Source: Escherichia phage vB_EcoM_E9. Taken from it: a stretch of 64,000 nt of DNA. This document shows positions 20,338-22,159 of this stretch, piece by piece. The notes under the pieces were generated by a model, which saw nothing but the letters and a program-made list of their open reading frames with translations, did no database searches and was not told where the DNA came from. Position 1 is the first letter of the stretch; the number at the start of each line of letters is the position of its first letter. The stretch lies in sequence record PP886229; one strand, 5' to 3'. The position numbers were made by a program, and so were the translations under genes.

Positions 20338-20445
20338 AATGACCTCAAAGTTATATTAAATTTTGTATTACGTTGAGTATAAAAATAAGCTATAACACCT
20401 GACTTGTCAACAGATTTTATAGCTTATTTGGCAGATTTTTTATAA

Positions 20446-20697
20446 GGCTACTGCCATCCTTCCATACATTACCTCACCTGACCTGACCTGACCCTACCTA
20501 ACATTACCGTGCCACACCTCACTTAAAAACCCTCTTAAAAGACTCTTAAGTGATGTAATCGAATTTTTATGTAGCTCCGATTAACTACCCATACCTCACC
20601 TCATCCAACCATACCATGCCTTACCAGACCGCACCTTACCTTACTAAAAGACCCTGTTTAAAGACCTTTTAAAAAGGAGCCTCCGAAGAGGCTACCT
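20446..20697. repeat. composite G-depleted pentamer-periodic repeat, copy pair 1
   Basis: Two tandem units of about 110 nt, each with a 50-60 nt (ACCNN)n-like tract almost devoid of G on the + strand, joined by a hairpin linker; ends in conserved ..aaaaccctcttaaaagactcttaagtgatg / ..aaagaccttttaaaaagg. Confidence 0.7.
20676..20697 (-). terminator. hairpin terminator after gene 20705..21145
   Basis: AGCCTC-ttcg-GAGGCT hairpin directly downstream (minus strand) of the stop codon. Confidence 0.45.
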
Positions 20698-20704
20698 AGT
20701 CAAC

Positions 20705-21145
20705 TTAGAAAGGTTTTCTACGTTGCTTGTTAATGTTAGCTTTCATAGCAGCTAAATGGTTTTGCTGTTCAATCAGTCGTGAACGTTCTTGATGACTAAG
20801 TGCCATAGTGTTCACATTCTCAATCGCTTGAGTGGCTTGCTTTAAAGCTCGACCAATCTTGCCAGACATTTTACGTTTTGCAATAGTTGCTTGATGCTTA
20901 GGTTCAACCACACGATAACCAACACCCATTGAAGCAACCAGATAAATCTTCTCTTCTTTAAGAAGCTTCTCAATAAACTTCTCAAGTCGGTTTAGACGTG
21001 TAAGCGCATAAGCCTTCATTTCATCTTCGTACTTAACAATGTCACCTTGATAAGTTGGCTTCACAATACCTAAGAAGGTATCCATCTCAGAATGTGATAC
21101 AGTGTCACCGTAACTAAACTTTGCTGCTAATGCTTTTGTATTCAT
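20705..21145 (-). CDS. hypothetical protein in repeat-flanked module
   Basis: 146 aa ORF, basic C-terminus; no motif recognised. Confidence 0.45.
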   Translation of the reverse strand: MNTKALAAKFSYGDTVSHSEMDTFLGIVKPTYQGDIVKYEDEMKAYALTRLNRLEKFIEKLLKEEKIYLVASMGVGYRVVEPKHQATIAKRKMSGKIGRALKQATQAIENVNTMALSHQERSRLIEQQNHLAAMKANINKQRRKPF

Positions 21146-21147
21146 AA

Positions 21148-21750
21148 TTAAACGTTACCTTCTGAAATAACTTCTACAGAAAAACGACCAAAGCGTGGAC
21201 GCCAATCACCTACACCACAAAGGTTACCAGCATTTTCCAGAACCATCAAGAGTTCCTCTTTGGTGATTTGCTCTTCATCGAACATCAAACCGAACTCTAC
21301 AGACCAGTCACGGAAGATTGGACGATAGCTCATAACTCGTGCTGTACCAATCTTAACAGACTTAGCATAGATAAAGTCTGGATTCTTAGCAAGTTCTTGT
21401 GGGTTTGCTGGACAGTTCTTGATAGTCATTGGGAAGACTACATCTGTCAGCATAATGGCTCGGTCAATTACCTTACCAAGTTTGTTGAGTTTCGCACCAG
21501 ACTTGATGCAAGCCTCAATCATCTCACCGTTCATAACAAAACCTAGTTGCTCATCGTAGTAACAAGAGGTTACCAGTTGGCTTTCTGCTAAGAGCGCATA
21601 GTCTTCGTCAGTCTTTTTACGTTTACTGGACAGAGACTTGTGATATTTTGTCAGAGGGTTTAATGGGTCTGACAGCGTATCAGCGTGGCTCAGGAAAGGA
21701 CGAGTACCAGTGATTTTGATATTTAACAGTTTCATAGCATTTAGCTCCAC
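21148..21750 (-). CDS. hypothetical protein in repeat-flanked module
   Basis: 200 aa ORF with RBS (ggag); no motif recognised. Confidence 0.45.
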
Positions 21751-21827
21751 ACTTTAGTTGATTGTTAAGTTGTTTGTAAAGAACCCTCAACAGAAGACTC
21801 TTTAGAAACTTGGTAGATTTTTAATGT

Positions 21828-22095
21828 GGCTACTACCATCCACCCATACCTCACAACACCATGCCATACCCGACCGGACAAGACCAGACCCTACCGCGCC
21901 AGACCTCATTAAAAGACCCTCTTTAAAGACCTTTTAAAAAGGTAAGTCTCATTTTAATGTAGCTGAGACTAACTACCCATACCCTACTTTACCTTACCGT
22001 ACCGTACTTTACCCGACCGTACCGGACAATACTTAACCCTACCTCACCCGACCGGACATCACTTAAAAACCCTCTTAAAAGACTCTTAAGTGATG
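21828..22095. repeat. composite G-depleted pentamer-periodic repeat, copy pair 2
   Basis: Second tandem pair of the same family with (NNACC)n-like tracts (..taccgtaccgtactttacccgaccgtaccggac..), linker hairpin with compensatory stem changes, same conserved ends. Confidence 0.7.
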
Positions 22096-22125
22096 CTGGT
22101 GAGTACCCGTTGGTTTATGCTGCTC

Positions 22126-22153
22126 AGTATACTCACCAAATTTTCTATGTCAA
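22126..22153 (-). promoter_or_regulatory. sigma70-like promoter reading into the repeat region (minus strand)
   Basis: Minus-strand TTGACA-N16-TATACT just downstream of the ligase stop; transcript would carry the G-rich repeat as a leader of about 350 nt. Confidence 0.4.
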
Positions 22154-22159
22154 CAACTT

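Follow-up and report, generated by a model that had tools for sequence, protein, structure and literature searches.

Why is a two-gene block in a phage genome bracketed by DNA that repeats itself every five nucleotides and contains hardly any G on one strand? The locus that raises this question lies at positions 20,338 to 22,159 of a 64,000-nucleotide (nt) stretch of Escherichia phage vB_EcoM_E9 (PP886229; the whole stretch is called the window below) and surrounds genes 20705-21145 and 21148-21750. The original prediction, made from the letters of this DNA, regarded the periodic tract as the key oddity of the region and treated the repeats and the two flanked genes as one functional unit, and our analysis bears out both judgments. 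We conclude, with a probability of about 93%, that this Felix O1-like phage carries here a VIPR (Viral Interference Programmable Repeat) system, of type II and of the SUSP1 clade. On this reading the repeat blocks contain four genes for guide RNAs, which stand on either side of the two VIPR protein genes, a kind of locus already known from two 2026 preprints (bioRxiv 10.64898/2026.04.26.720920; bioRxiv 10.64898/2026.04.26.720927).

As described in those preprints, VIPR is a phage-encoded, CRISPR-related system for RNA-guided DNA silencing, composed of a minimal RAMP protein of about 20 kDa (Vipr), an accessory gene (vap) and guide RNAs (vrRNAs) that contain 9-16 YNNGG repeats and a conserved 3' tail, which in the SUSP1 clade is a pseudoknot. 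One Vipr protomer is reported to bind each repeat in a right-handed filament that sequesters GGY and leaves the NN dinucleotides to pair with double-stranded DNA. Each repeat passes over one base of the target, and transcription is silenced; a protospacer-adjacent motif (PAM) is not required and either strand can be targeted. The clade is represented there by 41 vrRNAs, its natural targets are given as mainly an E. coli satellite phage, and the SUSP1 vrRNAs, about 100 nt long, co-purify with Vipr and silence target transcription (small RNA sequencing, pull-down, GFP and phage assays; same preprints).

Repeat units and the RNAs they are predicted to encode

A repeat search recovered a four-copy family of 94 nt at 20462-20555, 20584-20677, 21849-21942 and 22002-22095, whose members are 64-76% identical and are spaced by 122 and 153 nt within the two intergenic regions. 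Chains of ACC at 5-nt spacing occur in the entire 64 kb solely at 20471-20516, 20593-20638, 21858-21903 and 21981-22051, each with 3-4 G per 60 nt on the + strand, and no GGT chain of this spacing was found on the + strand in the same scan. The four G-depleted, 5-nt periodic units around the two genes are thus real and, as had been claimed, unlike anything else in the window in composition. All genes of the region lie on the minus strand, and therefore the transcribed strand of the tracts reads (YNNGG)n, with 11-16 repeats per unit. The two intergenic regions had also been called direct repeats of each other; repeated units do stand on both sides, but they are really paralogous arrays of diverged units, whose number varies from one to three per side between phages.

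The region is present in 237 phage records, so the repeats are not an assembly artefact, an outcome that the original prediction had allowed for. Its identity to the corresponding DNA of Felix O1-like phages (Felixounavirus and relatives) is 80-99%, although the Felix O1 genome paper does not mention the repeats. In 110 records the repeat regions are 60-80% identical, whereas the flanked genes are about 93% identical at the DNA level, and among 20 close loci there are one to three units per side. The repeats diverge and vary in number while the genes remain steady, which makes the repeats the fast-evolving part of the locus, the opposite of what is expected of an exchangeable cassette. Such a cassette, with the repeats as its boundaries and as sites of recombination or mobility, had been among the suggestions in the original prediction, and direct repeats on either side of a two-gene block do recall it. 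However, both genes are present and 97-100% identical in 18 of 18 close loci, their products are 98-99% identical to those of Escherichia phage SUSP1, it is the flanks that change in sequence and copy number, and in distant phages tracts also occur between the two genes; we consider this explanation extremely unlikely.

On the sense strand, each unit consists of a hairpin of 16-18 base pairs (bp) with a 3-nt loop, followed by 11-16 YNNGG repeats and a 32-nt tail. All four vrRNA genes are on the minus strand and are named here by their position upstream (U) or downstream (D) of the protein genes. U1 (21945-22056) contains 16 repeats (22056-21977) and a tail pseudoknot at 21976-21945, and its NN guide reads CC CG GA AG TA AT CC AC CG AA AC AC AA AA AG AT. 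U2 (21812-21908) has 13 repeats (21908-21844), the guide GA CT GC AG CT CT CC CG AT AT GT GA AT and a tail pseudoknot (21843-21812) paired as GTGG/CCAC and GGTAG/CTACC. Eleven repeats (20643-20589), one of them degenerate (TTGGA), make up the tract of D1 (20557-20643), which specifies AA AA GC CT AA AT AT TG GA GA AT and ends in a pseudoknot at 20588-20557, while D2 (20430-20521) comprises 12 repeats (20521-20462; guide GA GT AC AA TA AG CA CA CA GA AA AT) and a pseudoknot (20461-20430) formed by AAGG/CCTT and GGCAG/CTGCC.

Across 68 distinct tracts from 21 phages, Y occupies position 1 in 100% of units and GG predominates at positions 4-5. Entropy amounts to 1.9 bits at NN against 0.46 at position 1 and 0.83 at position 4, figures in which the parsing rule itself constrains position 5 and, in part, positions 1 and 4. 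GGY is conserved and NN is hypervariable in these tracts, as VIPR demands. This pattern bears directly on the idea that the tracts are cis-acting sites in the operon mRNA, at which a ring- or filament-forming protein resembling TRAP (trp RNA-binding attenuation protein) would recognize triplets in 5-nt register and autoregulate translation or termination of the two genes. Since Vipr binds such repeats according to the preprint, some feedback on its own transcript is conceivable; nevertheless, a hypervariable NN beside a protein that is 98% conserved suits guides rather than an operator, and taken with the evidence from fold and targets given below it leaves a cis-acting role very improbable.

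The tail is an H-type pseudoknot, in which a 4-bp helix (GTAG/CTAC, GTGG/CCAC or AAGG/CCTT) is interleaved with a 5-bp hairpin. The latter is the linker hairpin that had been singled out for its swapped stems and constant loop, and this observation extends well beyond the present phage: the stems covary among 22 distinct tails, drawn from 21 related phages, with pairing in 99.5% of cells and changes on both sides in eight of nine pairs, although there are just four tail types and hence few independent covariation events. None of 500 shuffles reached the observed pairing, and slid controls were 30-42% paired. The covariation points, as had been anticipated, to a structured nucleic acid. Rfam searches of the entire window at gathering scores, and of 20300-22200 in E-value mode, returned nothing relevant, and no tRNAs were found in the window.

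The hairpin that precedes each repeat tract is also conserved. It spans 22057-22095 in U1 (18-bp stem, 3-nt loop; -15.9 kcal/mol, z = -6.4, reached by 0 of 200 shuffles), 21903-21943 in U2 (-13.6 kcal/mol, z = -2.45), 20517-20555 in D2 (-13.0 kcal/mol, z = -4.1) and 20644-20677 in D1, all on the minus strand, and its 3' arm passes in register into the repeat tract. Across 21 phages it is kept in two sequence types (CATCACTTAAGAGTCTT... and ACCTTTTTAAAAGGTCTTT...), the hairpin before U2 being of the second type. No mention of a 5' hairpin before each vrRNA was found in the available part of the VIPR preprint text. It is possible that this element is a dedicated maturation signal, which sets the 5' end of the vrRNA and splits the array into single guides, but we offer this tentatively and regard it as somewhat less likely than not; candidate readers could be an RNase III-type activity, for which the hairpin would be a site, or Vipr or Vap.

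On the minus strand the order is two vrRNA genes, vipr, vap and two further vrRNA genes. Directly past the DNA ligase stop codon there is a sigma-70-type promoter-like site (TTGACA-16-TATACT, 22126-22153, minus strand) that matches the consensus at 11 of 12 positions and is likely to mark the start of a transcript containing the upstream vrRNAs, vipr and vap. An intrinsic-terminator-like hairpin on the same strand (20678-20693) follows vap, and the downstream vrRNAs lie beyond it. The downstream units thus come after this terminator-like hairpin, and no gene of the module stands behind them, which is difficult to reconcile with cis-acting sites. The neighbors of the two-gene block are the ligase gene, a helix-turn-helix (HTH) regulator gene and small open reading frames (ORFs).

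G-rich non-template tracts past a strong promoter could also generate R-loops or present dense clusters of primase sites, and thereby serve as a phage replication origin. The promoter-like site and the replication genes around the locus (ligase and polymerase here; Sak4, SSB and DnaC-like genes in other phages) would fit such a role, and some tract pentamers equal T7 primase sites. An origin, however, has no need for an invariant GG to recur in exact 5-nt register while NN is free to vary, or for a covarying RNA pseudoknot, and we judge it even less probable than the cis-acting sites. A TRAP-like cis-regulator, T7-type primase clusters, two-tier G-quadruplexes and an R-loop origin were all considered as candidates and were dropped on the fold and literature results.

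Elsewhere in the window, a G-poor stretch on the + strand (62966-63080) follows two terminator-like hairpins and contains about 2.7 tandem copies of the 23-nt unit CAGAATCTATCCCACTAATTCGA. It is without 5-nt periodicity and may represent binding-site iterons.

The two protein genes and their distant relatives

The upstream gene, vipr, occupies 21148-21735 on the minus strand and encodes 195 amino acids (aa). The ORF tool placed its start at a GTG at 21750 (200 aa), but homologues and the SUSP1 annotation begin at the ATG at 21735, and the GTG start is probably an over-extension. The product is a minimal RAMP (Cas7-like) of about 20 kDa with a single RRM core, a G-loop and a thumb, the features by which VIPR proteins are recognized, and is identical to SUSP1 Vipr at 192 of 195 positions. 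In the alignment to SUSP1, all of the residues reported to hold G1, G2 and Y3 (H17, D177, R138, W178, E71, M72, R179 and C173) are present with the same numbering. A RAMP is not the beta-sandwich that a TRAP-like regulator would call for. Homologues of the 200-aa ORF number more than 500 and are about 190 aa long; the ORF contains no Pfam domain, and searches of Pfam and PHROGs yielded no function for either flanked gene.

Immediately downstream of vipr lies a vap1-type accessory gene (20705-21145, minus strand), whose all-helical product of 146 aa is identical at 145 positions to that of the SUSP1 gene in the same position. From the description of a two-gene locus, we infer that this SUSP1 gene is the published vap1. 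Type II Vap is predicted to be a DNA-binding protein, according to the preprints (bioRxiv 10.64898/2026.04.26.720920; bioRxiv 10.64898/2026.04.26.720927). The 146-aa protein is colinear with the product of the second gene of distant loci, an alignment that is not significant (E = 3.3).

How far the association between such proteins and periodic tracts extends was examined by retrieving distant loci with the vipr ORF and then with its alignment, which gave 385 viral stretches encoding relatives. Of 67 distant viral loci (aa identity 39-48%, GC content 41-65%), 62 have sense-strand (GGNNN)n tracts, defined as runs of 8 or more GG held in one 5-nt phase, which adjoin the RAMP gene or its partner gene of about 150 aa. 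Some lineages use GGCNN instead of GGTNN, so the association is one of the protein family with (GGYNN)n tracts. The link between gene and tract is ancient. Tracts that lie in sense orientation and directly adjoin start and stop codons would also suit cis-acting sites, whereas a replication origin would not have to be strictly linked to a RAMP gene in phages that are unrelated.

Antisense tracts were found in only a single distant locus (L065, 892-1329), which has four of them about 1.2 kb upstream of the RAMP gene; they may form a second, inverted vrRNA array. In some distant phages (L022, 1253-6441), the vipr-vap pair sits within a recombination and replication block containing a Sak4-like ATPase, a nuclease-like ORF, SSB, and DnaD-like and DnaC-like genes, with about 500 nt of G-rich repeats between vipr and vap. 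A further VIPR locus, on a 146-kb viral contig (L021, 4100-5400), has about ten units downstream of the two genes, each composed of a conserved hairpin of about 50 nt (GGTTCTCTGAACGAAGCCGCTTCGCAAGAGGCGGTTTCCTTGAGCGAATC) and a degenerate G/T-rich tract. Hammerhead ribozymes are mentioned in the VIPR preprint, and we considered these hairpins as candidates for them; Rfam finds in them neither a hammerhead nor any other family.

Predicted targets in an E. coli satellite

If the four tracts are guides, their NN strings should match DNA outside the locus. When complete E. coli genomes were searched by BLAST with the vrRNA region, a chromosomal element was identified in 140 of them. This satellite is an island of about 11.5 kb, located in yecE (DUF72) or between tonB and yciI, and 547 of 5,426 complete genomes contain its core; CFSAN061772 and Ecol_517 are among the strains that carry it. 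Its genes encode a serine recombinase, baseplate and tape-measure proteins, the latter two homologous to those of the phage, and small ORFs. The nine copies from E. coli chromosomes (L107-L110, L112-L116) are mosaic, with HNH, Dam methylase and AP2/ERF-like genes that come and go, and are often hit by insertion sequences.

For the target scan, the four tracts were converted to NNx patterns (one skipped base) and compared with the nine satellite copies. The best match of U1 was 29 of 32 (91%), in a 184-aa gene; U2 matched the baseplate gene at 21 of 26 (81%); D1 matched an intergenic site upstream of a 236-aa gene at 20 of 22 (91%); and D2 matched a 107-aa gene at 23 of 24 (96%; predicted site GATGCTACCAATTATAGACAGCAACATGAAAAGAT). 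All four guides thus show at least the 80% NN match that the preprint uses as its criterion. Just 14-22 matches were obtained in the controls, in which the guides were reversed, were read with skips of 0, 2 or 3, or were compared with the chromosomal flanks or the 64 kb of the phage itself; none of 500 shuffles of NN order reached the observed score for any guide, and the satellite match holds solely at a skip of one. Within the 64-kb window, beyond which about 24 kb of the genome lies, the best self matches were 65-75% NN, below 80%. Agreement with satellite DNA this far above chance speaks against cis-acting sites, and the gapped form of the matches would be left unexplained by a replication origin. 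The original prediction of a duplicated regulatory or replicative element is thus not supported as to mode of action; the repeats are vrRNA genes that would act in trans on another mobile element.

The mechanism is experimental for SUSP1; its transfer to the present phage is by homology, given proteins 98-99% identical to those of SUSP1, and structure prediction, covariation, comparative genomics and target prediction lend it support here. One Vipr protomer would bind each repeat and the protomers would build a helical filament, with each GGY flipped into protein pockets. The NN dinucleotides would thereby be left free to pair with double-stranded DNA in the NNx pattern, in which each repeat passes over one base of the target, and binding, without a PAM and on either strand, would block transcription. 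The four guides would be aimed at genes and one promoter-proximal region of the integrated satellite, and therefore the system most likely silences this parasitic satellite during infection.

A few observations weigh against the assignment or the silencing proposed from it. First, the phage's own baseplate gene (6633-7397, + strand) is 79% aa-identical to that of the satellite, and the homologue of the U2 target at 7090-7127 matches U2 at 17 of 26, compared with 21 of 26 in the satellite, a difference of four NN positions; discrimination by this guide is thus modest. Second, the skipped base coincides with the codon wobble position in one of the three in-gene targets (U1), being at codon position 1 for U2 and position 2 for D2, although wobble alignment is the rule reported in the VIPR preprint. 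Third, the AlphaFold2 model of Vap (predicted local distance difference test score 75.8) has generic helical-bundle fold matches alone, which leave its fold unassigned and support neither a DNA-binding fold nor a Cas11-like identity. Finally, the source papers on VIPR are preprints a few months old.

The nine satellite copies encode neither vipr nor vap, and three of them carry one vrRNA-like tract, an observation that the preprint makes as well. Together, the results predict that this phage silences an E. coli satellite found in about a tenth of complete genomes, and the U2 baseplate pair would offer a natural test case of how few mismatches protect self from silencing.

Comparison with known systems

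Several known systems share individual features with this locus. ToxI/ToxN type III toxin-antitoxin loci likewise place tandem non-coding RNA repeats beside a small RNA-binding-protein gene in phages and plasmids, but ToxI repeats are 36 nt long and are cut by the toxin, ToxN does not belong to the RAMPs, and a guide function is absent. TRAP is an oligomer that reads 9-11 or more triplets 2-3 nt apart on one RNA molecule, with 5-nt periodicity; its RNA, however, consists of (G/U)AG-NN repeats, its fold is unrelated to Vipr, it acts on its RNA in cis and its spacers are without information. TRAP-type attenuation would involve an 11-mer beta-sandwich acting in cis, whereas here we find a RAMP fold and spacers that hold target information.

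The Cas7 family of class 1 CRISPR systems (Csm3, Cmr4, Csf2) is closer, as it has the same RRM core, glycine-rich loop and thumb and polymerizes on a guide RNA with periodic base flipping. VIPR differs in being without a CRISPR array, other cas genes or an adaptation module, in its period of 5 nt, of which three are sequestered, compared with 6 nt and a single flipped base in CRISPR, and in its non-contiguous guide, whose specificity is encoded within the repeats. Class 1 CRISPR-Cas loci are defined by a repeat-spacer array with Cas5, Cas6, a large subunit and Cas1-Cas2, whereas no more than two genes lie between the repeat blocks here, and neither a repeat-spacer array nor an Rfam CRISPR family was found by the repeat search and Rfam scans. 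VIPR is a newly reported form of RNA-guided DNA recognition and a proposed ancestor of CRISPR RAMPs, and its loci are recognizable from raw sequence alone.

The VIPR type II locus of SUSP1 is the closest match. It has the same gene pair (98% and 99% aa identity), YNNGG repeats with a pseudoknot tail, and the same position between ligase and the HTH-regulator gene block, and its predicted target is of the same class, a satellite of E. coli that carries homologues of baseplate and tape-measure genes. What the present phage gains is an annotation of its effector genes and of four guides with their tails, with nothing categorically new beyond the preprints. The two loci differ in their carriers, a Felixounavirus here and a Suspvirus in the case of SUSP1; in their arrays, two upstream and two downstream here against one and three in SUSP1; and in their guides, the four sequences being particular to the present phage, with one of three in-gene targets in wobble phase.
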